Part shown: positions 16,605-35,958 of the stretch, piece by piece
Position numbering within the stretch: position 1 is the first letter of the stretch
Layout: every line of letters starts with the position of its first letter
Source of the DNA: a virus
Lineage: Duplodnaviria > Heunggongvirae > Uroviricota > Caudoviricetes
Length of the DNA stretch: 35,960 bases
Virus record (IMG/VR): IMGVR_UViG_2541047679_000003
Strand: one strand, 5' to 3'
Translations under genes and position numbers: made by a program
Notes under the pieces: generated by a model
Told to the model about the DNA's origin: nothing
The model's input: the letters and a program-made list of their open reading frames with translations, nothing else
The model's database searches: none

Positions 16605-18054
16605 AGAGAATGCGGGCCAGCCGCTCCTGCAGATCGTCCGTGTTCATCTGAGGGTAGAGCTCCGCCAGTTCGCCCAGCAGCTCAGACGGGTTAACCCCGT
16701 TTTCGACCCGCCTGAACAGAGGTGCCAGGACGGGTTCCAGCGTGCCATTTAACGCGCCTCCGTTCATCAGAATGTCCAGCGCGTCGTCAAGCTGCTGCTG
16801 AGCCTGAATATCAGCATCAATCGCCTCGGCAAATGACAGCGGCAGCATGTTATTCTGGCGTTCCGACGGTGGTGTCTCGTCAATATCGCCGTCCTGCAGT
16901 TGGTACTCACGCTTGAAGTACTGCGGGGTCAGACGCAGACCCGCCCGGGTGAGTTTTTCGTCGCGGGTGGCACGGGTGTCATCAATGGCCTCCTGTTCCC
17001 ACATGGCCCAGACCGGACACGGCACATCGCCGAAGTTCAGGGTGACCACCGTTCTGATGACCTGATTCACTGCCGCCTGAATGATGTCCGCATCCGCATC
17101 GCGGATATCAGCCGTTACCTCCAGCCCGGCCTGTGCAGAGGCCTTGTTACTGTTCGCTTCCGTGGTCTGATTCTGACCGAGTAATGCAATGGAGATCTCA
17201 CTGCGTGACAGTGTGATCAGCTCGCGAAATACCTCGCTGCTGTCTGCCTTGCCATCCGCTGCCCTGAGCTCAATACTGCTGTCATCGGGGATGGCGGCCA
17301 CCGCGTCCTCCACCATCTGCTCCATGGAGTCCAGCAGTTTTTCAATCTCTGCATCATTTGCGCCCCTCGGGTGCTTACCGATCACCCACGGGGAGCCAAA
17401 CTTTTCGGCAAAGCGGAGCCAGAATTTCATCCCGCCTTTCTTGAAGGCGACCGGCCAGAAGCACATGGACAGGTCCGGGAAACCGTAAGGATTGTCATAC
17501 GAGGCATCCTGTGCCGGCACCACGAATTTTGACGGTGACAGCAGCTCACCCTCCACACCCGCATCACGCGCCCGAAAGCGCAGGCAGTTGTCCGTATCAA
17601 ACTGAAACCACTCAGGCGGTTTGCCGACAATATCCGTCACCGCCCACGACCTGACCGAACGGCCCCACATGATTTCACAGGGCTGATACCCGTAGAGCAC
17701 GGCATCGCTCATTTCACCGATGATGCGGGACAGATCCAGATCGTCGAGCATGTCGCGGATGAAACGGAAGACCCGGGCAGAGGCGTGACCACGCTCCAGT
17801 CCACGCTCCAGCGATTTGAGCGCTGCTTTACGTCTGCGGATACAGCCCCCGACCAGCGGGTCGGTGCGCAGTTCGCGGTAGATACGGATATCCCGTCCCT
17901 GAGCCTTGAGAATGGGATCAGGATTGGGCAGATACATGCCCAGTCCGTAAAAGTCGATCGCGCGGCTGCGGGAGGCAATCTGCGCGGTCAGTGATTTCTG
18001 AGGCTCAGAAAAAGCAACAAATTCATCGGGTGAAACCCAGATACCCCTCGCCAT
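16558..18054 (-). CDS. portal protein, Mu gp29-like
   Basis: 498-aa ORF directly downstream of the large terminase gene. Confidence 0.85.
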   Translation of the reverse strand: MARGIWVSPDEFVAFSEPQKSLTAQIASRSRAIDFYGLGMYLPNPDPILKAQGRDIRIYRELRTDPLVGGCIRRRKAALKSLERGLERGHASARVFRFIRDMLDDLDLSRIIGEMSDAVLYGYQPCEIMWGRSVRSWAVTDIVGKPPEWFQFDTDNCLRFRARDAGVEGELLSPSKFVVPAQDASYDNPYGFPDLSMCFWPVAFKKGGMKFWLRFAEKFGSPWVIGKHPRGANDAEIEKLLDSMEQMVEDAVAAIPDDSSIELRAADGKADSSEVFRELITLSRSEISIALLGQNQTTEANSNKASAQAGLEVTADIRDADADIIQAAVNQVIRTVVTLNFGDVPCPVWAMWEQEAIDDTRATRDEKLTRAGLRLTPQYFKREYQLQDGDIDETPPSERQNNMLPLSFAEAIDADIQAQQQLDDALDILMNGGALNGTLEPVLAPLFRRVENGVNPSELLGELAELYPQMNTDDLQERLARILFVANIRGRLHERDNG

Positions 18055-19649
18055 CAGAATCCCTCCAGCATACGGGCCGCCTGACGACGACGGCGTGAGC
18101 TTGCCTTCACCGGCCCTTTGTTAATTTCACGGCTGGCGAAATACGCCAGCGCCAGTGCGATGGCTGAATCCCCGTGGCGTTTACCACCGTCAGCCTTTGC
18201 TTTTGAGCGTTGCTCCGGTACGCGGGGGACACCGTTCACCACCTGAACGGCCCGCAGGTCATCCAGTGTGTCTTCATCCTTTGGTAAGTCCACCAGGTTG
18301 CCGTCTTCCAGTGCAGCTTTGACCGGAGGCATATGCTCCCGGTACCAGCCTTCGGTTGGCATCACCTGCTGAACCCGGCCGGAGCCGTAGCGCTGCATGG
18401 CGTATTCAGCCAGATAGGCACCATTACCACGGGCATCAAACGCTGCACCCAGCAGACCGGGCAGGCCATCCATCAGATACCAGGTGATTTGCTCCTGCTG
18501 TCTGAACGGCACGTTACGCAGCTCCAGTACGAATGGCACGCGTCGTACCAGGTTCTTCTCCTGCAGCAGGGGATAGTCCACCGACAAATCACCGCTACGG
18601 CCAAAGTCGCGCCCCAGGAAAGAGCGGGCATCAGTGGGGAGTGCCTCCAGCAATGGTTTCAGATACTCATCAAGCCAGTCCTGCGTCTCGCGGAAGCGAA
18701 CCTCATCAGACAGCAGTTCATAACCTTCCTTGCAGGTCAGACGCAATACCGGCGTATCAGCGGACATGCGGGACTCTATCAGGGCACGGGACAGCCAGGC
18801 ACCGCCACCGTTGGCCGGAATACAGTCAAGCTCTTCGGATGCGCCGGCACCGTAGAATTTGTACACCGATGCCATCCAGGCCTGCTCGGATGCCTCCGAC
18901 CATTCCTTCCCGGTGCGCAGACAGACGCGCCGGAACAGCCCCTCAGATACGGCTTCCCGGAAAGTGATGCGATGTATGCTGCCTCCCTGACGTCCGGCAC
19001 GGATATCCCCGATAAGCGTATTGAACGGATTGTCGTCACCGTCATGGGTGGAGATAACGCGTACCTTTCCCCCCCAGATAAGCATCGCCAGCGCCGCTTT
19101 CAGCAGTTCGTCCAGTTGCTCATGGAACGCCGCTTCGTCGATAACAATAATACCCTGACGGCCACGCAGGTTAGACGGGCGGCTGGAGAGCGCAACAATA
19201 CGAAAGCCGGAGTCAGGAAATTTGATGGTGTAAGTCTTGATGTGTTTGTCGTCGTCGTCCTCTTCCCAGAATCCTTCTTCAATTTCACTGGCCGCATAGT
19301 TGAATGCCCGTGCCCACATCGCACACGCCTGAATGTATTCGACGGTCATGTCCTGGTTATAAGCGATGTAATACACATTCATCCCGCCTGCTGGCGCAGA
19401 AGAGGCGGCGGTCAGTACGTTATCGGATGCCTCAGCCCATGTAATACCGGTACGACGGCTCTTTTCTATCACCTTAAGCGGAGAGGTGTCTGCCACCCAG
19501 CGCTGCTGGTAAGGCAACAGAACGGGAGGGGCATCCAGCGCCGAGGTATCAGGCAAAACGGGAGCAAGGTTATTCCTCCCGTCCATGGGACTCATCCCTT
19601 CGGGGCCGCCGCCAGCGGCGTTTAAAATCACTCCGGATGATTTTGTCAT
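18054..19649 (-). CDS. terminase large subunit, Mu gp28-like
   Basis: 531-aa ORF, acidic motif ...IIVIDEAAF..., between the gp27-like and portal genes. Confidence 0.85.
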   Translation of the reverse strand: MTKSSGVILNAAGGGPEGMSPMDGRNNLAPVLPDTSALDAPPVLLPYQQRWVADTSPLKVIEKSRRTGITWAEASDNVLTAASSAPAGGMNVYYIAYNQDMTVEYIQACAMWARAFNYAASEIEEGFWEEDDDDKHIKTYTIKFPDSGFRIVALSSRPSNLRGRQGIIVIDEAAFHEQLDELLKAALAMLIWGGKVRVISTHDGDDNPFNTLIGDIRAGRQGGSIHRITFREAVSEGLFRRVCLRTGKEWSEASEQAWMASVYKFYGAGASEELDCIPANGGGAWLSRALIESRMSADTPVLRLTCKEGYELLSDEVRFRETQDWLDEYLKPLLEALPTDARSFLGRDFGRSGDLSVDYPLLQEKNLVRRVPFVLELRNVPFRQQEQITWYLMDGLPGLLGAAFDARGNGAYLAEYAMQRYGSGRVQQVMPTEGWYREHMPPVKAALEDGNLVDLPKDEDTLDDLRAVQVVNGVPRVPEQRSKAKADGGKRHGDSAIALALAYFASREINKGPVKASSRRRRQAARMLEGF

Positions 19650-20191
19650 GTGGCAATCCCCAGAATCTCGCGACGAAGCGCCTGTACTGCGTCGCTTGAC
19701 AGTCCCCCCTTACGGGCAATTTTCTCGGCGTTGCTGGCTGCCTGCTGCGCTCTGGCCCGTACTTCAGACTGGAACTTTTTGAGGTTGACGGACGCGCGGG
19801 ACAGCGTAGCCACATTCTTCGCCACCTTCGACAGCAGGGCCACGCGTTCTTTAGGATCGACTTCGCCTTCTTCCGCCTCCTGCAACTGGACAATACTCTC
19901 GAACAGCTCGGTCTGAATAAGGGCTATCACAGCCTCCGAACGCGCATCCTGATCGTCTGCTGCGCCTTCGGTCAGCATGCGGGCCGCTTCTGTTGCCGCA
20001 CGGATAGCACCATAGCGGCGCTCAATCTTCTGTCCATAGCGATGGATAGCGGATTTGCTGATGACGTACCCCCGCTCACGCAACAGTGACTCCAGCTCGT
20101 TATACCCGCTGAAGCCGGATTCAGTCAGCGCCCGTTCAAGCCAGCGGCGCACGTCTTCCGGCAGCTTTTCTATTGTGCTGCGTCTGGCCAT
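19646..20191 (-). CDS. Mu gp27-like protein (putative small terminase/DNA-binding)
   Basis: 181-aa ORF, N-terminus MARRSTIEKLPEDVRRWLERAL..., immediately upstream of the large terminase. Confidence 0.65.
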   Translation of the reverse strand: MARRSTIEKLPEDVRRWLERALTESGFSGYNELESLLRERGYVISKSAIHRYGQKIERRYGAIRAATEAARMLTEGAADDQDARSEAVIALIQTELFESIVQLQEAEEGEVDPKERVALLSKVAKNVATLSRASVNLKKFQSEVRARAQQAASNAEKIARKGGLSSDAVQALRREILGIAT

Positions 20192-20502: not shown

Positions 20503-20828
20503 TATTGACCTCCGGTATTGCGGTACTGCTGTACCACTTCCAGTTTGTTATAAAGCGCGTCCAGTTTGGCCTCAATGACTGTCTGGCCACGGATATAATC
20601 CTCTCGACGGACATAATTCAGCGGTAAATCCGCTTTAAATCGCATAAATTCTTTTTCCAGCTCGCCCCAGTTGGAGGCGGATTGTTGCAGGGCCTGTTCA
20701 AGGGAGGCGAATCGTGCCGCCTGGCGTTCTTCTGTTTTACTGAACAACCATTTGGCGAGCCCTCCCACAAACCTCATGAAGGTGAGCAGAAAACTCACCA
20801 CCGTCCAGAATTCAACCTGCAGTGTCAT
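20502..20828 (-). CDS. small membrane protein (lysis-associated?)
   Basis: 108-aa ORF with an N-terminal transmembrane segment and a coiled-coil C-terminus, directly after the spanin genes. Confidence 0.45.
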   Translation of the reverse strand: MTLQVEFWTVVSFLLTFMRFVGGLAKWLFSKTEERQAARFASLEQALQQSASNWGELEKEFMRFKADLPLNYVRREDYIRGQTVIEAKLDALYNKLEVVQQYRNTGGQ

Positions 20829-21475
20829 TTCTGTAATCCTTCCCGTTCATCCAGCAGCGCGTTTATCTGGTTCCGCCAGCGACGACATTGCCATGCGTTG
20901 TCGATGATGTTGGCGAGAACGTCACGCTGGGAGACACCCGAATCGCGTAACCGGGTGTCAGTGGTTTCAGGTTGCCCGGTCGCTGTGCCAGAGCGGGTGC
21001 CAGTGGCGGCAACTGAGTCTGAATGACCGGTGTCGACGGATGCGTTGTCATATCCGAGTGCGGCGTTGTACTGGCGCACGAAACCGCGAGTAAACACGCA
21101 CTCAATGGGATGACTCTTACCTTTTTCATCAATCCAGCGCTGTGTGACATCGTTAATTTGCCCCTGTAGTTGTTTGTTCCGGCTCTCCAGTTGAGCAATC
21201 TGCTCAAGATAACCGGCTTCAGCCCGCTGCCCGGCGGCCACCTGCTCCTGATACCGTCTGGCCCAGGCCCGCAGCGCAGCATTCTCAAGCGTTGCCTGCT
21301 CCGTTTTGTACGCGTCAAATGCTGACTGCAACTGACTTAGCGCGGTATCACCGTCACGCTTTGCAGAGTCATGACCACTTCTGTATCCCATGGCATACAG
21401 GCCGACCAGAAAGGCATTGATAAGAATGGCCAGCAGAATGCCGCGCCACGGCAGCTTTTTAACCAGATGCCACAC
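20825..21475 (-). CDS. i-spanin (Rz-like), probable GTG start
   Basis: N-terminal TM segment (ILLAILINAFLVGLYAMGY), long coiled-coil periplasmic domain, follows the endolysin gene; GTG at 21475 preceded by GGGAGG; the ORF-track start overlaps the endolysin. Confidence 0.5.
   Translation of the reverse strand: MWHLVKKLPWRGILLAILINAFLVGLYAMGYRSGHDSAKRDGDTALSQLQSAFDAYKTEQATLENAALRAWARRYQEQVAAGQRAEAGYLEQIAQLESRNKQLQGQINDVTQRWIDEKGKSHPIECVFTRGFVRQYNAALGYDNASVDTGHSDSVAATGTRSGTATGQPETTDTRLRDSGVSQRDVLANIIDNAWQCRRWRNQINALLDEREGLQK
20863..21129 (-). CDS. o-spanin (Rz1-like lipoprotein) nested in the i-spanin gene
   Basis: Alternate-frame ORF starting MKKVRVIPLSACLLAVSCAS (lipobox-like) followed by a Pro-rich sequence, wholly inside the i-spanin gene. 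Confidence 0.45.
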   Translation of the reverse strand: MKKVRVIPLSACLLAVSCASTTPHSDMTTHPSTPVIQTQLPPLAPALAQRPGNLKPLTPGYAIRVSPSVTFSPTSSTTHGNVVAGGTR

Positions 21476-22199
21476 AACTGCTGCCTCCCCATGTGAGATA
21501 TCGCGGTGCCAGTTCGCGCAGGATGCGCTGCGGATAATGGCGGTTCTCCCGCCAGCTGGCCGCATTGCGTCCGGCATTCACCGTGGCGACATGTCCGAAC
21601 CAGCGGGTGCTGTCCAGACCTTTCTGTGATGCAAGCCGCCTGTCCCGTTGTACCCAGCCCAGACCACCGTTATAGCCCGACAGTGTCATGGCCATACGCT
21701 CGCAGTCACTGGCGGCGCTGACACGCTGCCACAGCCAGCGGTCATAGCTGACCAGCGCCCGGATAGCCCATGCCGGATTAAACGGCTCACGACTGCTCAG
21801 CATCGGTATCAACTGGCTTATCCAGTCGGCAGTGGCAGGCATGAACTGCGCCAGTCCCTGAGCGCCAGCCGGCGAGATCGCATCAGGTCGCCAGCCGCTT
21901 TCCTGATGCAGTTGCGCGGCGAAATCGGCCACCGGCGCAGACAGTCCCCATTCAAGCCGGGCATTACGGATCACATCATCGCGATACTGCAGCGCAGCCT
22001 GCGGAGGTTGTGCTGCGCATGCCTGGCTGAAAAAGCCGCCACACCAGAGCAACATTGCGACAAAGAATACCCATGCCATATGAACCAGAAAGGTCCCGGC
22101 GCGGACTGACAGGCGTTCGGTTCTGATGAAGACCCGAAAGGCTTCGAAAGCCAGTTTCAGGGACATGCATACAATCCAGGTGATCTGCGGCCAGTTCAT
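21459..22199 (-). CDS. endolysin, lytic transglycosylase (SLT domain)
   Basis: ...LHQESGW... and ...AQGLAQFMPATADW... SLT motifs; N-terminal hydrophobic stretches (possible signal-anchor); start is coupled to the upstream ORF stop. Confidence 0.75.
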   Translation of the reverse strand: MNWPQITWIVCMSLKLAFEAFRVFIRTERLSVRAGTFLVHMAWVFFVAMLLWCGGFFSQACAAQPPQAALQYRDDVIRNARLEWGLSAPVADFAAQLHQESGWRPDAISPAGAQGLAQFMPATADWISQLIPMLSSREPFNPAWAIRALVSYDRWLWQRVSAASDCERMAMTLSGYNGGLGWVQRDRRLASQKGLDSTRWFGHVATVNAGRNAASWRENRHYPQRILRELAPRYLTWGGSSCVASG

Positions 22200-22201
22200 G
22201 A

Positions 22202-22552
22202 TTAAAGCCCCATCGCAACAGCCAGGCAGACCGCTGCAACAATCAGTGCACGGCGGATTAACGCAGCAGAAAACACCAGGTGAAGGCCGGTCTGTACCGG
22301 GAAACGCCCTTCAGCCATCAGCCTGTCGTCATGTTTCAGGTACTGACCGGGACGGGCTTTGGGGAAGAGCGAACGGTCAAGCCAGTAACCCAGCACTGCT
22401 GCCAGCGTGATGAGTGCCAGCTTGTAGATCACAACAGGCAGCTGCTGTGGTGAGACCAGAGCGATGGTGCCCAGCAACAGCACTGAGGTCAGCAGCCAGC
22501 CGCTGAGGCGAGGTTTTTTAACAGGGGGAATGAATTTTTTCAGGTTTTTCAT
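22202..22552 (-). CDS. membrane protein (holin/antiholin-like) opening the lysis operon
   Basis: ATG at 22552 preceded by AAGGAG; 116-aa product with 2-3 predicted TM segments. Confidence 0.5.
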   Translation of the reverse strand: MKNLKKFIPPVKKPRLSGWLLTSVLLLGTIALVSPQQLPVVIYKLALITLAAVLGYWLDRSLFPKARPGQYLKHDDRLMAEGRFPVQTGLHLVFSAALIRRALIVAAVCLAVAMGL

Positions 22553-22612
22553 GTGTGTCTCCTTATCTGGTGGAGACAGCATCACAAATACAGGGCGCGA
22601 AGGATTTTAAAG

Positions 22613-22622
22613 CGCGTTAAGA
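22613..22622 (-). promoter_or_regulatory. candidate late promoter motif upstream of the lysis operon
   Basis: Minus-strand CTTTAAAATC about 50 nt upstream of the first lysis gene; shared with three other late-region gaps. Confidence 0.35.
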
Positions 22623-22682
22623 GAGCCGGGGATACGGGATGTGCAGGATAAACGATGAATTATTCACAGAGGAGAATACGAT

Positions 22683-23411
22683 ATGACGCAGACACTGAAT
22701 CCGGTCATCACTGTCACCGTGTCCGGTCCTGTGGGCAGCGGTAAAAGTTACGTACTGGCGCGAATAGAGGAAGTGGTGAAACAGGAATTCGGAAACAGCG
22801 TCATTGTCGACGCCGCAGACGTGGACGGTGAGCGCCGTATGAGTGGGGATGATCTGAGCACATGGCAGAAACCACGGGCTGGCACAGTGATCAGGCTGGA
22901 GGAATACACGGGACAGGGCCTGTTGTCATACGGCGAGGAGCGTATCTGTCGGACGAATGAGCTGCTGGATGTTATATGCCCCACGGGCCGGCAACCCTGG
23001 ATACTGCCCGATGCACTGCATGCCACCATTGCGGCACTGATGACAGTTTACGATCAGGAGCTGCTCATGAAGGAGTTACGTAAACTCACTGGTCAGTCAA
23101 CAGAATGTTGTTCGTCCCCGAAGTACGGCAAACAGGAACACATCCCGATTAACCAGCCTCCCCGGTTCTTCGACGAATACCTTCTGACACCGGAAAATAA
23201 AGCTGAGCATGAAGAGATCAAAGCGGCGTTGTTCCGGGAAATCAGGAAGATTGCTGAAATGCAACTGGAGGGCGGGCTGGACAGAGTGATGGCGAGAGGA
23301 GAATGGGCATCGCTGTTTGAAAGAGTTTCCCCGGAATTACTTCCCCTCGCACTGGCTATCGGGATTATGCAGACAGCGGATAAACCTCACTTACGTTCAT
23401 TAAACACGTAA
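22683..23411 (+). CDS. P-loop NTPase of unknown function
   Basis: Walker A GPVGSGKS at residues 15-22, candidate Walker B VIVDAAD; GAGGAG SD 9 nt upstream. Confidence 0.6.
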   Translation: MTQTLNPVITVTVSGPVGSGKSYVLARIEEVVKQEFGNSVIVDAADVDGERRMSGDDLSTWQKPRAGTVIRLEEYTGQGLLSYGEERICRTNELLDVICPTGRQPWILPDALHATIAALMTVYDQELLMKELRKLTGQSTECCSSPKYGKQEHIPINQPPRFFDEYLLTPENKAEHEEIKAALFREIRKIAEMQLEGGLDRVMARGEWASLFERVSPELLPLALAIGIMQTADKPHLRSLNT

Positions 23412-23791
23412 CGCATAATCCGGGATACGCATTCAGCGATGACTGCATTTTCACCGGTTTTTACTGCATCCAGAAGTGACTCTTTAAATGGTACGGGCCG
23501 GGGCTGCAGAAAGGTCGGCATGGCATTGAGCAGACAGAGCGTTTTTTCCGTGAGGACGACATCAGCCGCTCCCACAGCCAGCAACTGAGAGTAACGAATA
23601 TAGCTGTTATCCCGAAGCCATATCAGCGTATCAATAAAACACCGGCACTTTTTCTGGTCGTGATCAACCTGGTCCGGGATATCGAAAAAACCAGAATAAA
23701 TCAAAACCTGAGGTGCCGGATGCGTGTTCAGTAATCGGCAGAATATTTTGCCGGTGAGTACATAAAAATCATCATTTAAGGAGTGCATCAT
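23387..23791 (-). CDS. hypothetical protein
   Basis: 134-aa ORF filling an otherwise 378-bp non-coding gap; overlaps the 3' end of the P-loop gene and the start of the next ORF. Confidence 0.35.
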   Translation of the reverse strand: MMHSLNDDFYVLTGKIFCRLLNTHPAPQVLIYSGFFDIPDQVDHDQKKCRCFIDTLIWLRDNSYIRYSQLLAVGAADVVLTEKTLCLLNAMPTFLQPRPVPFKESLLDAVKTGENAVIAECVSRIMRYVFNERK

Positions 23792-24005
23792 GAATCCCCG
23801 ATTAACGTTAACAGAACATCAGCGCCGTGCTGAAGCAGTGAACAATGTTCTGGAAGATATTATCCGGTTATACCGCGGAGAACTGAGTGTCTGTCGTGCC
23901 GCTTTTCATTTTCAGGGAATACAAAAGCAGTTTGATACTTCTGTTTTTGCAGAAGGTATTACTTATGCCCTGGACCGGATAAGGTCAGAAAATCGCCCCG
24001 GATAA
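23790..24005 (+). CDS. hypothetical small protein
   Basis: 71-aa ORF with AAGGAG SD 7 nt upstream of the ATG. Confidence 0.35.
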   Translation: MNPRLTLTEHQRRAEAVNNVLEDIIRLYRGELSVCRAAFHFQGIQKQFDTSVFAEGITYALDRIRSENRPG

Positions 24006-24059
24006 TCCCTAAACCACATTAACAGAAATCCCGCCATCCCTGCCGCATCATGAAAGAAC

Positions 24060-24091
24060 GACCAGCCCGGCACCCGAAAGCCGGGCTGGTC
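24060..24091. promoter_or_regulatory. GC-rich stem-loop (12-bp stem)
   Basis: gaccagcccggc / gccgggctggtc inverted repeat with an 8-nt loop. Confidence 0.4.
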
Positions 24092-24148
24092 ATCGCCCCA
24101 CAGGAATGCGCTGTGAGCCGACCAAGGTTCAGTCAGTCTCGCGAGACC

Positions 24149-24176
24149 TGACCAGACTGCCATATTTTTTAATAAT
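24149..24176 (+). promoter_or_regulatory. candidate sigma70 promoter for dam
   Basis: TGACCA, 16-bp spacer, AATAAT about 20 nt upstream of the dam ATG. Confidence 0.3.
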
Positions 24177-24195
24177 TGTAAAAGGCTTGCAGATT

Positions 24196-24960
24196 ATGAA
24201 AATGCAGACATTACCCATCGTGCCGTGGATTGGTGGCAAACGCCGCCTTGCAAAACACATTCTGCCGCTGTTTCCGGCGCATGAATGTTATGTGGAGCCG
24301 TTTTGTGGGGCAGCAGCGCTCTATTTTCTTAAGACACCCGGCAAGATCGAAGTCATCAATGATATCAACGGTGAACTGGTGAATCTGTACCGGGTGGTAA
24401 AGCATCACCTGGAAGAATTTGTCCGCCAGTTCAAATGGGCGCTGGTCAGCCGTCAGATCTACAAATGGCTGCAGATCACCCCGGAAGAAACACTGACGGA
24501 TATCCAGCGTGCGGCACGGTTCTACTACCTTCAGAAGCAGGCGTTTGGCGGCAAGGTGGCAGAGCACAGCTTCGGTACCTCCACCACATCCCCGCCACGC
24601 TTCAACCTGCTACGTATTGAAGAAGAACTGTCAGCGGCACACCTGCGGCTTTCCAGAACAGTCATAGAACACATGGACTGGCAACAGTGCATTGAGCGTT
24701 ATGATCGTCCGCACACGCTGTTCTACTGCGACCCACCGTACCTGGGTACGGAAGGCTATGGTGTGGATTTTCCTGAAGGGAACTACTCGCGGCTGGCAGA
24801 GCTGGCCCGGTGCATCAGAGGAAAAATGATAATTTCGGTGAACGACATCCCGCAGATGCGCGAGGTGTTCACTGGACTGAACATACAGACAGTGAATATC
24901 AACTACAGTCTGGCGGGTAAACCCACGCCGCGCCGTGAACTGCTAATCTGCAACTTCTGA
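24196..24960 (+). CDS. dam: DNA adenine methyltransferase (Dam family)
   Basis: N-terminal ...PWIGGKRRL... AdoMet-binding region and catalytic DPPY motif (FYCDPPYLGTEGYG); ATG at 24196. Confidence 0.85.
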   Translation: MKMQTLPIVPWIGGKRRLAKHILPLFPAHECYVEPFCGAAALYFLKTPGKIEVINDINGELVNLYRVVKHHLEEFVRQFKWALVSRQIYKWLQITPEETLTDIQRAARFYYLQKQAFGGKVAEHSFGTSTTSPPRFNLLRIEEELSAAHLRLSRTVIEHMDWQQCIERYDRPHTLFYCDPPYLGTEGYGVDFPEGNYSRLAELARCIRGKMIISVNDIPQMREVFTGLNIQTVNINYSLAGKPTPRRELLICNF

Positions 24961-24966
24961 AACAAA

Positions 24967-24991
24967 ACCGGAAAGCACAATGCTTTCCGGT
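24967..24991 (-). terminator. rho-independent terminator downstream of the repressor gene
   Basis: accggaaagca / tgctttccggt stem followed on the minus strand by TTTTGTTTC; lies between the convergent dam and repressor genes. Confidence 0.5.
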
Positions 24992-25076
24992 AAACCAAAC
25001 AACTTCCACTATGTCACTGGCGATGTTTTCTGAAAGCATCCAGATCAACCACCTGTCCTTTGTGTCCGGGTCAGTA

Positions 25077-25433
25077 TCAGCCTGCGATTTTTCCTGGTTT
25101 TGGCTGAGTATAGAATCGCCCAATCTCAAGAAATGAGCGTTGTTGGTCTGGTGTCATGTCGTCAAAAGTATCTATTAGTTTTTGTTTTTCTGGGGAAATT
25201 TGATTCTGGTTTCTAGTCATACCATCTGTGCTCATTCCAGTGAGCAACCAATTTACATCAACATTAAACTCTTGATGCATCTTTAACAGAAACTCCCCTC
25301 CAGGCATCGCCTTTCCATTTTCAATCTGACTGATACCACCATTAGAAATACCTAAACGAGCTGCAAATTCTCTCTGGTTCAACCCTGCTTTCTTCCTCAC
25401 AGAAATAACGCGCTCTCCTATATCTTTGCTCAT
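25077..25433 (-). CDS. prophage repressor, HTH XRE family
   Basis: N-terminal helix-turn-helix (...LNQREFAARLGISNGGISQIENGK...), divergent from the early operon. Confidence 0.8.
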   Translation of the reverse strand: MSKDIGERVISVRKKAGLNQREFAARLGISNGGISQIENGKAMPGGEFLLKMHQEFNVDVNWLLTGMSTDGMTRNQNQISPEKQKLIDTFDDMTPDQQRSFLEIGRFYTQPKPGKIAG

Positions 25434-25450
25434 AAAAGTGAATCTCTATC

Positions 25451-25479
25451 TTGATATGCTCATAATTATGAGCAATAAT
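25451..25479 (+). promoter_or_regulatory. candidate early promoter (Pe-like)
   Basis: TTGATA, 17-bp spacer, AATAAT about 45 nt upstream of the ner-like ATG. Confidence 0.4.
25457..25474. promoter_or_regulatory. operator: perfect 18-bp palindrome TGCTCATAATTATGAGCA
   Basis: Read directly; lies in the repressor/early-operon divergent region and fills the spacer of a candidate early promoter. Confidence 0.55.
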
Positions 25480-25526
25480 CTAACACATATAAGGCAAACA
25501 TCATTGCATCAACAAAGGAGACAACG

Positions 25527-25715
25527 ATGACTGCAGAACAAGTCAAAGCTCTCTTCCGCCAGCGCGGGATCACTTTCACCCGCTGGGCAGAAGAAAACGG
25601 CTACAACCGCAATGAGGTATACCGCGTTCTCAACGGGCAGACCAAAGCCCGTTACGGTAAATCCCATGAAATCGCCGTGAAGTTGGGACTGAAATCAACA
25701 GCTCAGGCGGCCTAA
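25527..25715 (+). CDS. Ner-like small DNA-binding regulator
   Basis: 62-aa ORF with AAAGGAG SD, first gene of the early operon; residue pattern resembles Ner/Nlp-type proteins. Confidence 0.6.
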   Translation: MTAEQVKALFRQRGITFTRWAEENGYNRNEVYRVLNGQTKARYGKSHEIAVKLGLKSTAQAA

Positions 25716-25761
25716 ATATTTTGAGTCTTTGTAAAAGGTTATCACATATCGCAAAAGAGGT

Positions 25762-26076
25762 ATGCAGATGAGTAAGACGAATGTTTCAAGCTCCGGCAGT
25801 CGCATCCTCCGGGTACTCAAAGCGCTGCGCGGTCATGCCCTGAACGGTATTTCTAACGGTGAACTGGCGACAGCACTGCACGAGTCACCGGCAAACATCA
25901 ACCGGGCACTCAACACCCTCATTGAAGAAGGGCTGGCTCTGAAACTGGAGAACGGACGTTTTGCACCGGGCATCCAGTTACTGCAGATCGCCATGGCCCA
26001 CAGTAACGAGATGGCACGTGCACAGGATCGTATTAACGAAATTAACCAACGTGTCATTTCAGGTAGTCGTTTGTAA
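25762..26076 (+). CDS. winged-helix DNA-binding protein
   Basis: ...LRVLKALRGHALNGISNGELATALHESPANINRALNTLIEEGLA... HTH-like; the start may be the second ATG at 25768. Confidence 0.5.
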   Translation: MQMSKTNVSSSGSRILRVLKALRGHALNGISNGELATALHESPANINRALNTLIEEGLALKLENGRFAPGIQLLQIAMAHSNEMARAQDRINEINQRVISGSRL

Positions 26077-26086
26077 GGAGTAATCA

Positions 26087-27007
26087 ATGGGACGTACCAA
26101 ATCACCGATTAACACTGAACTGAACGCCGATGTACCGCTGTCGGATGATCTCAACGTCAGCCTGAATGCCATGACACAGCATCGCATGGAGATCATGCAG
26201 CAGTTTGGTGATGGACTGCCTTATGAACGTGAACGCATCGTTCACGAAGCACGTTTTTATATGGCGCAGAGTGCTGAATCTATGTTGGAAGCGGGTAAGC
26301 GGCTGATCATCTTAAAAGAAAATGAACCGCATGGTGATTTCACAAATATTCTGGAAAACGACCTCGGATTAGCACCACAGGTAGCTCGTCGCATGATGCA
26401 GGCCAGCGTGAAATTTCTCGGCAATGGAGATGAACAGCCAAAACGCTCAGCGCTGAGCGTTTTGGGAAAAACCAAGTTATATGAACTGATGGTTCTGGAT
26501 GACGAAGAACTCGACGCATTAGCTGATGGTGGAACCGTCGCCGGTGCAACGCTTGATGATATTGATCGCATGACCAGCCGCGAACTGAAGGCCGCCCTGC
26601 GTGAAGCGCGCGAAACCAACGCAGCTCAGCAACAGGTGCTTGCCGGAAAGGACGAAAAAATCAACGAACTGGCCACAAAACTGGAGAAGAAATCGCGCCT
26701 GCAACCTCCGCCGCCAGACGAAGAACTGAAAAAATTGCGGGCGGAAGTGACGGCATTAGCGGTTGAGGCCGAATCGGCTATCGCCGTCCGGCTGTCCAGT
26801 GTTTTTGAGACCCTGTGTGAATACTGCACCAAAAACATGATCGATACCCCCAGAGATTTCATGGCCGGTCTGGTCTGCCAGATTGAACGCAGTGTTCATG
26901 CATTACGTGAGACGTTTGACCTTGAGGCCGCTCCATCGGGTAACGATGCCCCCGCCTGGCTGACCGAACCGGAACCTGAAATCAACCGACCGGAGGATAT
27001 GCAGTAA
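26087..27007 (+). CDS. hypothetical early protein (possibly DUF3102-like)
   Basis: 306-aa ORF with AGGAG SD, acidic coiled-coil middle region; family assignment from memory only. Confidence 0.55.
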   Translation: MGRTKSPINTELNADVPLSDDLNVSLNAMTQHRMEIMQQFGDGLPYERERIVHEARFYMAQSAESMLEAGKRLIILKENEPHGDFTNILENDLGLAPQVARRMMQASVKFLGNGDEQPKRSALSVLGKTKLYELMVLDDEELDALADGGTVAGATLDDIDRMTSRELKAALREARETNAAQQQVLAGKDEKINELATKLEKKSRLQPPPPDEELKKLRAEVTALAVEAESAIAVRLSSVFETLCEYCTKNMIDTPRDFMAGLVCQIERSVHALRETFDLEAAPSGNDAPAWLTEPEPEINRPEDMQ

Positions 27008-33317: not shown

Positions 33318-33767
33318 ATGCAGAAAAAACGCCTGATACAGCTTATCCATATTGCCCGTAATGAACTGGGTATGGATGAAGACACCTACCGCCAGATGTT
33401 ACAGGGGCTGACCGGTAAAGCCTCAACCAAAGGAATGGATACCACACAACTAAACTGCGTGCTGGAATCCATGAAAAAGAAAGGCTTTCGCGTTAAACCA
33501 GCCAGAAAAGCCAGCTCCGGTTTACCGCTTGATAACCATCCGCAGTCCAGGAAAATTCGTGCGCTATGGCTTGAAATGGCTGCTGCCGGCATTGTTCGTG
33601 ACCGTTCAGAAAATGCATTAGCGAGGTGGATCAAGCGGGAAACGGGCATCAGCGCCCTGCGCTGGCTCAGTACTGAACAGGCAAGCAGTGTTATTGAGAA
33701 ACTGAAGAAGTGGCAGCGCAGAGCTGCGGGAGTCAAACATGAGCGACCTGAATCAGTTTCGAAGTAA
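33318..33767 (+). CDS. GemA-like protein (Mu gp16 family)
   Basis: 149-aa ORF with N-terminus ...LIQLIHIARNELGMDEDTYRQML..., immediately upstream of mor; AAGGAG SD. Confidence 0.6.
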   Translation: MQKKRLIQLIHIARNELGMDEDTYRQMLQGLTGKASTKGMDTTQLNCVLESMKKKGFRVKPARKASSGLPLDNHPQSRKIRALWLEMAAAGIVRDRSENALARWIKRETGISALRWLSTEQASSVIEKLKKWQRRAAGVKHERPESVSK

Positions 33768-34128
33768 GGGGCCGGAACTCCTGGTGGAACTGGCACAGCA
33801 TACCTCTGAGACCGTTCGCGAGATTATTGATATTGAGCCCGAAGTTGCCGACCAGATTGGTCAGGCCGTCGCGAACCGAATGATGCAGGTCTGGGGCGGG
33901 CAAAACGTTTATTTCCCGATGGGCATGGTATGGAAGGTCAGTCAGCGCGACCGGGAAATCTTCAGGGAGTTTAACGGACGCAACCACCACGAACTGGCCC
34001 GCAAATTTGGTGTTTCGCTTCAGTGGGTCTACAGCGTGGTTAAGCGGGTAAGAAAAGAAGAACTGGATCGGATGCAGGGCAAGCTATTTGCTGATGAACC
34101 CGATGCAGATACGGAGAAAAAAGAGTAA
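33739..34128 (+). CDS. mor: Mor/C-family transcription activator
   Basis: 129-aa ORF, the same length as Mu Mor, with a C-terminal HTH-like ...HHELARKFGVSLQWVYSVVKRVRK...; last gene before the prophage end. Confidence 0.75.
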   Translation: MSDLNQFRSKGPELLVELAQHTSETVREIIDIEPEVADQIGQAVANRMMQVWGGQNVYFPMGMVWKVSQRDREIFREFNGRNHHELARKFGVSLQWVYSVVKRVRKEELDRMQGKLFADEPDADTEKKE

Positions 34129-34575: not shown

Positions 34576-35673
34576 TCAGCCGCTAAAGACGTTACCTGCG
34601 CCCGGGGCGGTTTTCAGCACCCAGACACGTCCATAGTGGTTGTACCAACCAGCGCGGTGTCCGGCTTCCGGCCCGATCCCTTGATAGATATCGAAGTGTT
34701 GGCCTTTGATTGCGCCACCGACATCCAGCGCCACCATCAGACGCAATTCGTACTGACCGTTAAATTTGCCGTTATTATCCAGCAGCGGCACTTCTGCCAG
34801 CAAGGTAGTACCTGGCGGAATAATTGAACGATCGGAGGCAACAGAAGCACGGCCAACCAGCGGCACCGCACTTGCCCCTTTCACCGGTGCAAAAGATTGC
34901 GGTTTAAAGAAGACGAAAGACGGGTTCTGTTCCAGCAGCTCGCGAACCTCAGCTTCACTGTGTGTTTCGCCCCAGTGACGAATCGCCTGCATCGACATAT
35001 CTTCTTTTTTCACTTCGCCACGGTCGATCAACACCTTACCAATGCTGCGATAGGCATGACCGTTTTTCCCTGCATAGCTGAAAAAGTTAAGCGGACTGCC
35101 ATCACCAAAGTCGATATACCCGCTACCCTGCACATCCATAATGAAGTTATCCATCAGGGAGTTACTGTAAGCGAGAATATATTTATCACTCAGAGCTCCT
35201 GCGTAGATCTCCGCACGAGACGGCAGACGACCACGTTTTGGCGGCATACGGTAAATCGGATACTGGAACTCGCCCTGACGGGTATGGCGCGCCTGAATTA
35301 CCGGCGTGTAATAGCCTGTAAACTGCACGTTACCATAGTTGTCGACACCTTCCATCTGCCAGGCATCAATGCCGAACTGGCGCATATTGCGGGTATCACC
35401 GCCTGCGCGCAGCCACTCTTGCACCGCGTTATAAACATTACTCTGGTTGCCATACAGACGCGGTGACGAATTACGGATATGGTTAATTTGCTCGGCAAAA
35501 TCACCGGCATTAATCGGCGCGCCAACGGCATCTGGCTGGTTCACCAGAGAGAAAGGCTGGGTAAATTTCCCGTCTTTATATTGCTGTCCGCGATCGGTTG
35601 GTTTGGAAGAGCAGGCGGCAAGCATTGCCACAACCGTGCCCATAAGAAGGTACTTTACCCAACGTCCTTTCAT
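34576..35673 (-). CDS. mltA: membrane-bound lytic murein transglycosylase A
   Basis: 365-aa product from the ATG at 35673 (MKGRWVKYLLMGTVVAMLAACSS... lipoprotein signal); the ORF-track entry is extended upstream of the true start. Confidence 0.9.
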   Translation of the reverse strand: MKGRWVKYLLMGTVVAMLAACSSKPTDRGQQYKDGKFTQPFSLVNQPDAVGAPINAGDFAEQINHIRNSSPRLYGNQSNVYNAVQEWLRAGGDTRNMRQFGIDAWQMEGVDNYGNVQFTGYYTPVIQARHTRQGEFQYPIYRMPPKRGRLPSRAEIYAGALSDKYILAYSNSLMDNFIMDVQGSGYIDFGDGSPLNFFSYAGKNGHAYRSIGKVLIDRGEVKKEDMSMQAIRHWGETHSEAEVRELLEQNPSFVFFKPQSFAPVKGASAVPLVGRASVASDRSIIPPGTTLLAEVPLLDNNGKFNGQYELRLMVALDVGGAIKGQHFDIYQGIGPEAGHRAGWYNHYGRVWVLKTAPGAGNVFSG

Positions 35674-35840
35674 TGTTCTCTTCTTCAGGTTAAAAAATAA
35701 GGCGCAACGAAGATAACAAACCACCGCGTTTAATGAAATGAGCAGCCTCTCCCTGACGCAAATTTTGCACAAAAAATAGGCTTTAGTGATTTGTTTTTGT
35801 TCAAAATCATGCCGAATCCGTGATCGGGGTAAAAAAAAGG

Positions 35841-35868
35841 TTGCATGAAAACGCGAGCAGAGTATAGT
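35841..35868 (+). promoter_or_regulatory. sigma70 promoter for the tRNA-fMet gene
   Basis: TTGCAT, 16-bp spacer, TATAGT, GC-rich discriminator, upstream A-tract. Confidence 0.6.
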
Positions 35869-35881
35869 GCGCATCCACGGA

Positions 35882-35958
<77 letters not shown>

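Follow-up and report, generated by a model that had tools for sequence, protein, structure and literature searches.

A three-gene locus beside dam in a BcepMu-like prophage: a putative mini-P-loop domain, a head-to-head gene pair and a possible mosaic accessory segment

The stretch of viral DNA analyzed here (IMG/VR record IMGVR_UViG_2541047679_000003, 35,960 nt, hereafter the window) is, on the evidence of its sequence, a BcepMu-like transposable prophage, and the subject of this report is a locus in its central region at which three open reading frames (ORFs) lie between the minus-strand lysis and late genes on the left and a DNA adenine methyltransferase gene, dam (24196-24960), on the right, with the repressor gene beyond (25077-25433). 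ORF1 (22683-23411, plus strand) encodes 242 amino acids and is preceded by the Shine-Dalgarno sequence AGGAG at a spacing of 8 nt, ORF2 (23387-23791, minus strand) encodes 134 amino acids, and ORF3 (23790-24005, plus strand), with AAGGAG 6 nt upstream, encodes a small protein of 71 amino acids and unknown fold. At its two ends ORF2 shares 25 nt with the 3′ end of ORF1 and 2 nt with the start codon of ORF3. An earlier note on this DNA, which had proposed a three-gene accessory cluster containing a P-loop nucleoside triphosphatase (NTPase), gave the same three ORFs and the same setting. Around the locus, 1.9 kb agree at 100% identity with Escherichia phage PhiKM, which is assigned to Bcepmuvirus, and with many Escherichia coli chromosomes of the sequence type 131 (ST131) type. 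Matches to the locus were found in 633 of 5,426 complete genomes, always on the chromosome and in up to three copies per genome; the N-terminal domain of ORF1 is present in 570 complete E. coli genomes and the ORF2-ORF3 pair in 499. Among complete E. coli genomes about one in ten carries the prophage, the pandemic ST131 clone included, so that its lysogen-borne cargo is widespread in epidemiological terms.

All three ORFs are real genes beyond chance ORFs, because they match PHROG families (ORF1, phrog_3787, E 5e-170; ORF2, phrog_2266, E 3e-44; ORF3, phrog_4490, E 7e-53), are called by the Prokaryotic Genome Annotation Pipeline (PGAP) in most genomes, give ratios of non-synonymous to synonymous substitution (dN/dS) against E. 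coli variants of 0.19-0.30 for ORF1 and 0.41-0.58 for ORF3, and have homologues in Serratia (53% identity for ORF2, 30% for ORF3 and 45% for the C-terminus of ORF1). The three PHROG families are all of unknown function. The earlier note could place none of the proteins in a characterized family, and our searches of Pfam, NCBIfam, PADLOC and the PDB concur: no Pfam, NCBIfam or PADLOC family scored above threshold for any of them, ORF1 giving only sub-threshold P-loop matches, and ORF2 and ORF3 had no match in PDB sequence searches either. In PADLOC-DB v2 the best E-value of ORF1 was 0.003, to the P-loop only (Csx3-AAA, mad8), and ORF2 and ORF3 gave none at E ≤ 1. No Rfam RNA family was found within 21500-26500, and a literature search by protein accessions and PHROG identifiers found no report.

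On comparison with its relatives, ORF1 is shown to be a chimera of three portable modules, an N-terminal mini-P-loop domain followed by M2 and M3, whose boundaries are shown by length variants in E. coli. The N-terminal domain (22683-22916, plus strand) comprises residues 1 to about 78 and contains the Walker A motif GPVGSGKS (residues 15-22, nt 22725-22748) as well as the conserved E50-R51, W62 and P64. M2 (22935-23087, plus strand; residues about 85-135) is recognized by the motif W-LPDA-HA-IAAL-VYDQ-L-MELRK, which also occurs C-terminally in five other proteins of the set (P0050, P0054, P0075, P0083, P0088). M3 (23175-23408, plus strand; residues about 165-242) exists as a free-standing 89-amino-acid gene in Serratia, whose product is 45% identical to it over 55 residues (BLASTP, E 7e-13) and matches phrog_3787 at positions 176-230. 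Within E. coli the modules appear as proteins of 242-247 amino acids (N-terminal domain, M2 and M3), of 182 amino acids (N-terminal domain and M3; residues about 53-124 and the M2 motif are missing) and of 141 or 158 amino acids (N-terminal domain and M2), the 141-residue form lacking the C-terminal half. In a further protein of 159 amino acids (P0107; locus L029, 1919-2398, on a contig of 2.9 kb), an N-terminal PG_binding_1 peptidoglycan-binding domain is fused to the mini-P-loop.

A word-indexed search with ORF1 recovered only its close E. coli relatives, and an exhaustive hidden Markov model search of 1.84 billion representatives found 65 related cluster representatives. The distant relatives align over profile positions 1-75 only, their C-terminal segments being unrelated and shuffled, and many members of the family are stand-alone mini-P-loop proteins of 75-90 amino acids. 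When 29 diverse members were aligned, only G15, G20, K21, I28 and E50 proved invariant or nearly so, and the order of elements in the domain is strand, GxxGxGKS, helix, strand, ER, W, P and strand. The Walker A motif reported in the earlier note is real, its G15, G20 and K21 being among the best conserved residues, and ORF1 does contain a GxxxxGK[ST] sequence after a β-strand; a minority subgroup carries a degenerate SGAESSGKN in its place. The segment VIVDAAD, which had been offered as a probable Walker B, does not hold up: D43 varies across the family (V, E, T, G and others), in the majority of members position 43 or position 46 is acidic, without the column being fixed, and the sole conserved acid, E50, lies in a loop or helix. 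Thus the P-loop NTPase assignment survives as far as the Walker A motif goes and fails on Walker B and on the core fold, since no conserved Walker B (hhhhD/E on a neighboring strand) was found in the family alignment, no full α/β core of at least five strands and about 150 or more amino acids was recognized in ORF1 by profile or fold, and no solved fold matched. Pfam matches of the AAA type stayed below the cut-off for ORF1 and ten other family members.

The resemblance of ORF1 to P-loop NTPases such as the ATP-binding cassette (ABC) proteins, AAA+ proteins and nucleoside-monophosphate kinases, with which it shares a β-strand, GxxGxGK[ST] and a helix, is confined to the level of the motif. Its profile matches in the PDB (ABC transporters, cytidylate, adenylate and guanylate kinases, UreG, PilT) comprise the strand, the P-loop, the first helix and at furthest the second strand, that is, no more than about 60 of the 77 profile positions counted from the N-terminal end, and no match extends over the whole domain. 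The matches also include small β-(P-loop)-α units of artificial origin, the "phosphate-loop protein" of entries 6c2u and 6c2v and the "De Novo Designed ATPase PL2x4_2" of entry 9jix: the ORF1 profile aligns with these designed proteins over 36-45 residues (E 8e-4 for 6c2u, and 1e-3; 0.18 with a single sequence), a match of the motif that implies neither homology nor shared activity. An alignment with E. coli adenylate kinase (hhalign) covers residues 2-34 including EKYG..QISTGDM, with an E-value of 0.005 and a probability of 7.5%, which is not significant; as a weak lead, a nucleoside-monophosphate kinase may have given rise, through its N-terminal third, to the mini-P-loop domain. An AlphaFold2 (AF2) model of the N-terminal domain has a mean predicted local distance difference test score (pLDDT) of 92.4 and found no fold match among the solved structures of the PDB, and in BFVD its sole match is an unnamed viral protein of 82 amino acids, 35% identical; the model of full-length ORF1, made from a shallow alignment, has a pLDDT of 47 and is not usable. 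From these comparisons we conclude that the N-terminal part of ORF1 is a phage-specific mini-P-loop domain without a Pfam entry, which by its sequence falls outside the definition of a P-loop NTPase when taken alone. Because it is too small and has no conserved Walker B, the domain probably does not work as an NTPase on its own; most likely it would bind a phosphate-bearing ligand, either a nucleotide or a nucleic acid, and serve as an adaptor for the exchangeable modules M2 and M3. A small Walker-A family without a Pfam entry bears on the minimum size of a functional P-loop unit.

The slot in which these genes lie differs extensively among related Mu-like prophages, a comparison that the earlier note had proposed. 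BcepMu-like prophages of Salmonella diarizonae and Citrobacter braakii have a mini-P-loop gene at this place as well, transcribed divergently to the holin gene and coding for different C-termini; the Salmonella relative has no ORF2/ORF3, and in the Citrobacter relative other small ORFs occupy the slot. In Klebsiella phage KP12 a minus-strand DUF2441 gene replaces ORF1. (KP12, accession OM835952, our locus L007, is filed under Vequintavirinae; the clone is that of a BcepMu-like transposable phage, with late proteins 80-98% identical to those of the window.) Serratia BcepMu-like prophages lack the mini-P-loop domain and carry the free-standing M3, an ORF2 homologue, a 73-amino-acid ORF3 homologue (30% identical, E 3e-11) and dam; there M3 and ORF2 overlap convergently at their 3′ ends by 37 nt, compared with 25 nt here, and the junction of the start codons is the same. 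In the E. coli variant L028 the N-terminal domain and M2 of ORF1 are kept, and two membrane proteins and a different repressor replace M3, ORF2, ORF3 and dam. L027 has ORF3 but no ORF2, L003 and L028 have ORF1 and neither of the two small genes, and dam is present without ORF2/ORF3 in the Salmonella and Klebsiella relatives; the dN/dS of dam against E. coli variants is 0.04-0.09. Altogether, presence or absence differs from the window in L003, L004, L007, L027, L028 and L033. The G+C content is 0.46-0.50 at 23001-24000 versus 0.55-0.60 over most of the late region.

Since the N-terminal domain, M3 and the ORF2/ORF3 pair are found apart from each other, the locus brings together at least three pieces that move independently and is not one system, and the turnover of the slot among relatives supports an accessory role. 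The earlier view of prophage cargo lying outside both the late and the early operon is thereby upheld, the slot being prone to swaps and lower in G+C, and the view of a single three-gene cluster is not, ORF1 being a chimera and ORF2/ORF3 independently mobile. We therefore favor the reading that the locus is a mosaic, non-core accessory segment in the central control region rather than a unit built around an NTPase, and we give this explanation as a whole, the roles proposed below for ORF1 and ORF2/ORF3 included, a probability of roughly 40%. As accessory cargo of a prophage, the locus is set apart by its uncommon regulatory architecture and by a small domain that has not been described before. 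Apart from this locus, mosaicism in the near-identical E. coli relatives L024-L028 reaches well beyond ORF1-3: relative to the window (18054-20191 and 25077-25433), terS and terL have been swapped (24% and 48% identity) and so have the repressors (33-35% identity).

The second component, ORF2/ORF3, is shown by its distribution to be a separately mobile head-to-head pair. The start codons overlap within CATCATG (23786-23792), the ATG of ORF2 being read from 23791 to 23789 and that of ORF3 from 23790 to 23792, and owing to this overlap the ribosome-binding site of each gene lies inside the other; as read from the DNA, each Shine-Dalgarno sequence falls within the first codons of the opposite gene. 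A scan of IMG/VR recovered 55 loci of the ORF2 family (L055-L109), and a divergent small partner with a 2-nt CATG start overlap was found in all 52 that are intact (nine E. coli BcepMu-like, one Serratia-like and 42 P2-like), the other three having been inactivated by one nonsense codon or reduced to deletion remnants (two loci). Full-length homologues of ORF2 with about 30% identity are encoded by the P2-like phages Midge, ST147-VIM1phi7.1 and FSL SP-004 (L050-L052), each divergent from a gene of 63-64 amino acids with a start overlap of 2 nt; this partner belongs to phrog_2454, a family different from phrog_4490 of ORF3. The ORF2 family has been kept with the 2-nt overlap across about 30% identity and two unrelated phage groups, the BcepMu-like and the P2-like, which points to a compact regulatory device near defense hotspots. 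In ORF2 itself the motif WL..N.YI.Y..(8)..V.LTEK.L..LN resembles the recognition helix and wing of a winged-helix protein, and from this motif we infer that ORF2 may be a DNA-binding regulator of the winged-helix type. A UniRef label of DUF2513 on the Serratia homologue of ORF2 was not reproduced by Pfam.

Temperate phages are known to use face-to-face promoter switches, such as C/Cox of P2 and CI/Apl of 186, and these are the closest in logic to the geometry of ORF2/ORF3: in all of them the genes diverge, the 5′ ends of the transcripts overlap (a prediction in the present case) and expression may be mutually exclusive. Unlike the P2 and 186 switches, ORF2 and ORF3 overlap in their start codons, have no detected helix-turn-helix (HTH), and are accompanied by a separate immunity pair elsewhere (25077-25715). 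Phage Mu offers another comparison, its small translational activator Com being encoded upstream of the DNA-modification gene mom. ORF3, also small, likewise precedes a DNA-modification gene, dam, and the phage is again Mu-like; unlike Com, ORF3 has no Cys4 zinc finger, and a gap of 190 nt that contains a strong hairpin separates it from dam. A role for ORF3 as a Com-like activator of dam was ruled out, as it lacks the zinc finger and dam occurs without it. The hairpin, a G+C-rich stem of 12 bp (24060-24091), lies between ORF3 and dam, and the segment containing it (24030-24110) folds at -34.4 kcal/mol with a z-score of -4.8 against shuffles. It is followed by no T-run on the plus strand and by a T-rich stretch on the minus strand, and could serve either strand as a terminator or attenuator. 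At 24148-24202 there are diverging promoter-like sites.

At the left side of the locus, the intergenic region between the holin gene and ORF1 (22553-22682) contains a conserved block consisting of TAAAAT on the minus strand (about 22604-22609) and, upstream of it, CAGGAT. In an alignment of six relatives TTTTAAAG.GC.TTA and CAG.AT are conserved, even in KP12, which has no ORF1, and the block is probably the late promoter. ORF1 starts about 75 nt beyond this block, so the promoter of ORF1 would have to overlap the region of the putative Mor-dependent late promoter. ORF1 as an activator of the late genes was ruled out because a Mor-family protein is encoded at 33739-34128.

Our best guess on how the favored mosaic segment might work, held with low confidence, is that ORF2/ORF3 form an antisense-coupled regulatory toggle and that ORF1 is a phosphate- or nucleotide-binding adaptor. 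The promoters of ORF2 and ORF3 would each have to sit within the other gene, and expression of the two would be mutually exclusive through transcriptional interference and pairing of the complementary 5′ ends. The toggle could in this way set the flanking accessory genes, either rightward through ORF1, ORF3 and dam or leftward through ORF2, in which case transcription of ORF2 would run antisense into the M3 end of ORF1. The biological output might be exclusion or defense, control of the methylase, or something else. A bolder version, which as a joint claim appears rather improbable, holds that the mini-P-loop is an autonomous ligand-binding adaptor or "sponge" with swappable target modules and that ORF2/ORF3 represent a new class of antisense-locked two-state switch. 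If this were true, the mini-P-loop would be a natural phosphate- or nucleotide-binding fold and the smallest Walker-A domain in use, and unrelated temperate phages would gate accessory and defense genes between lysogeny and lytic growth by the ORF2/ORF3 switch.

Several observations weigh against these proposals. The AF2 model of the N-terminal domain shows no strands by DSSP despite its pLDDT of 92, leaving the fold uncertain. A scan with consensus promoters found five sites versus 3.7 expected from a shuffled control, and no conserved promoter at the ORF2/ORF3 junction. Pfam and PDB profile searches of ORF2 found no winged HTH, so that the winged-helix assignment rests on the recognized motif, and there is a depositor's HHpred note that likens gp45 of Midge to gp5.5/5.7 of T7, which hhalign did not reproduce (probabilities of 0.1% and 1.6%). 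ORF2 has been inactivated in variants, by a nonsense codon in L025 and by a precise deletion in L027, and the toggle is therefore not essential. Finally, in the 42 P2-like loci the pair keeps a fixed position with variable cargo beside it, and may thus have a conserved phage function in P2-like phages instead of being cargo or a regulator of cargo. If the mini-P-loop family and the ORF2/ORF3 pair were to prove free of phenotype, the locus would be ordinary mosaic prophage cargo.

The surroundings of the pair in P2-like phages also bear on the reading that the locus provides anti-phage defense or superinfection exclusion from the lysogen, with ORF1 as a nucleotide-binding sensor or effector and ORF2/ORF3 as its partners. 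The cos-proximal old/tin region of P2, between gpA and gpQ, is a defense hotspot of P2-like phages (Rousset et al., 2022, PMC9122126), and it is there that the ORF2 family and its divergent partner are found in Midge, ST147-VIM1phi7.1, FSL SP-004 and the 42 IMG/VR loci. In the latter the pair is fixed about 0.5-0.7 kb past the portal gene Q on the cos side, with a partner of 63-86 amino acids, and between the pair and gpA lies variable cargo that includes a reverse transcriptase with an HTH protein, Fic, DinI-like and unknown genes. In the P2-like lineage the pair accordingly appears to mark one border of the old/tin hotspot; that makes it a constant flank there and not variable cargo, with no defense phenotype reported for it, which tells against defense even as the company of the reverse transcriptase with HTH, Fic or DinI-like genes tells for it. 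Further encouragement comes from the related hotspot of P4 satellites, in which loci of unknown function were protective in six of eight cases tested (PMC13586616), from the position of the variable slot next to the immunity region and from the variable C-terminal modules of ORF1, which resemble arms-race diversification. The dN/dS values, however, indicate purifying and not diversifying selection, PADLOC gave no significant match for ORF1-3 or for the alternative cargo genes of the slot, and the independent occurrence of ORF1, M3 and ORF2/ORF3 means that they are not an obligate system. On balance we regard a defense function as possible, if unlikely.

Where mini-P-loop genes sit in other phages has to be weighed with respect to a second alternative, namely that ORF1 is a genuine minimal or oligomeric nucleotide-using enzyme with a conserved role in late gene functions, lysis or packaging, and no moron at all. 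The distant members belong to siphovirus-like contigs of IMG/VR, and in nine of 13 loci they lie directly upstream of HNH-terS-terL and after an Rz spanin gene. Such an upstream position is seen in L012, L013, L014, L015, L016, L017, L018, L020 and L005, with the Rz spanin gene ahead in L014; in L020 the stop of the mini-P-loop gene overlaps the HNH start, and in L015 the gene ends 4 nt ahead of terS. That these genes recur where lysis genes meet packaging genes may mark a moron site or hint at a late or packaging role. Morons are classically found between lysis and terminase genes, and other members of the family occupy unrelated contexts. One of four loci obtained by the genome-collection query with closer sequences, L006, turned out to encode a true ABC ATPase and was discarded as a false lead. 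The enzyme reading can also draw on the enterobacterial prophage gene always abutting the putative late-operon promoter, on the one member fused to a PG_binding_1 domain, on the weak similarity to adenylate kinase in its N-terminal third, and on E50, R51 and W62, which could coordinate a metal, act as an arginine finger and stack on a base. Against this stand the 75-residue size of the domain, the non-conserved Walker B and the Walker A that is degenerate in some members, as well as the absence of the domain from the KP12 and Serratia relatives and its occurrence in PhiKM only among 50,697 phage records. We consider such an enzyme quite improbable and retain the mosaic accessory segment as the preferred reading.

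That ORF2/ORF3, or ORF1-M3 with ORF2, form a toxin-antitoxin or abortive-infection pair is highly improbable, for although the proteins are small, the genes tightly packed and overlapping, the convergent 3′ overlap of M3 and ORF2 kept in Serratia, and ORF2 repeatedly inactivated by nonsense codons, deletions and frameshifts as might befit a toxic gene, some of the "frameshifted" copies may be no more than sequencing errors in the draft assemblies that contain them, the genes diverge or converge instead of forming a co-transcribed bicistron, the head-to-head layout being unlike a toxin-antitoxin operon, no toxin or antitoxin domains were found in Pfam, and the persistence of ORF3 without ORF2 (L027) and of ORF1 without either (L003, L028) gives no sign of addiction.

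The gene layout of the window as a whole was read from Pfam and PHROGs. The minus-strand late genes begin with the holin gene (22202-22552, with the start called by PGAP), followed by an SLT transglycosylase gene and an Rz-like gene, and the central region consists of ORF1, ORF2, ORF3, dam and an HTH_3 repressor. Dam (24196-24960, plus strand) is of the D12 class (Pfam PF02086, E 6e-29), and is the conserved right-hand neighbor of the uncharacterized cassette, outside it. The HTH_3 repressor (25077-25433, minus strand; Pfam/PHROGs) forms with a Ner-like gene the immunity pair of the prophage (25077-25715), apart from ORF2/ORF3. The plus-strand early operon runs from the Ner-like gene through the DDE transposase, an ExeA-type B protein, Gam and GemA to the Mor-family activator (33739-34128, plus strand) at its end. 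Beyond the prophage lies the host gene mltA (34576-35955, minus strand), and the right end of the prophage falls between the end of the Mor gene at 34128 and mltA. At the other side of the locus, the Rz-like gene (20825-21577, minus strand) holds an embedded out-of-frame ORF (20863-21318) with a lipobox-like LSAC motif, which is the usual arrangement of Rz/Rz1 spanins.

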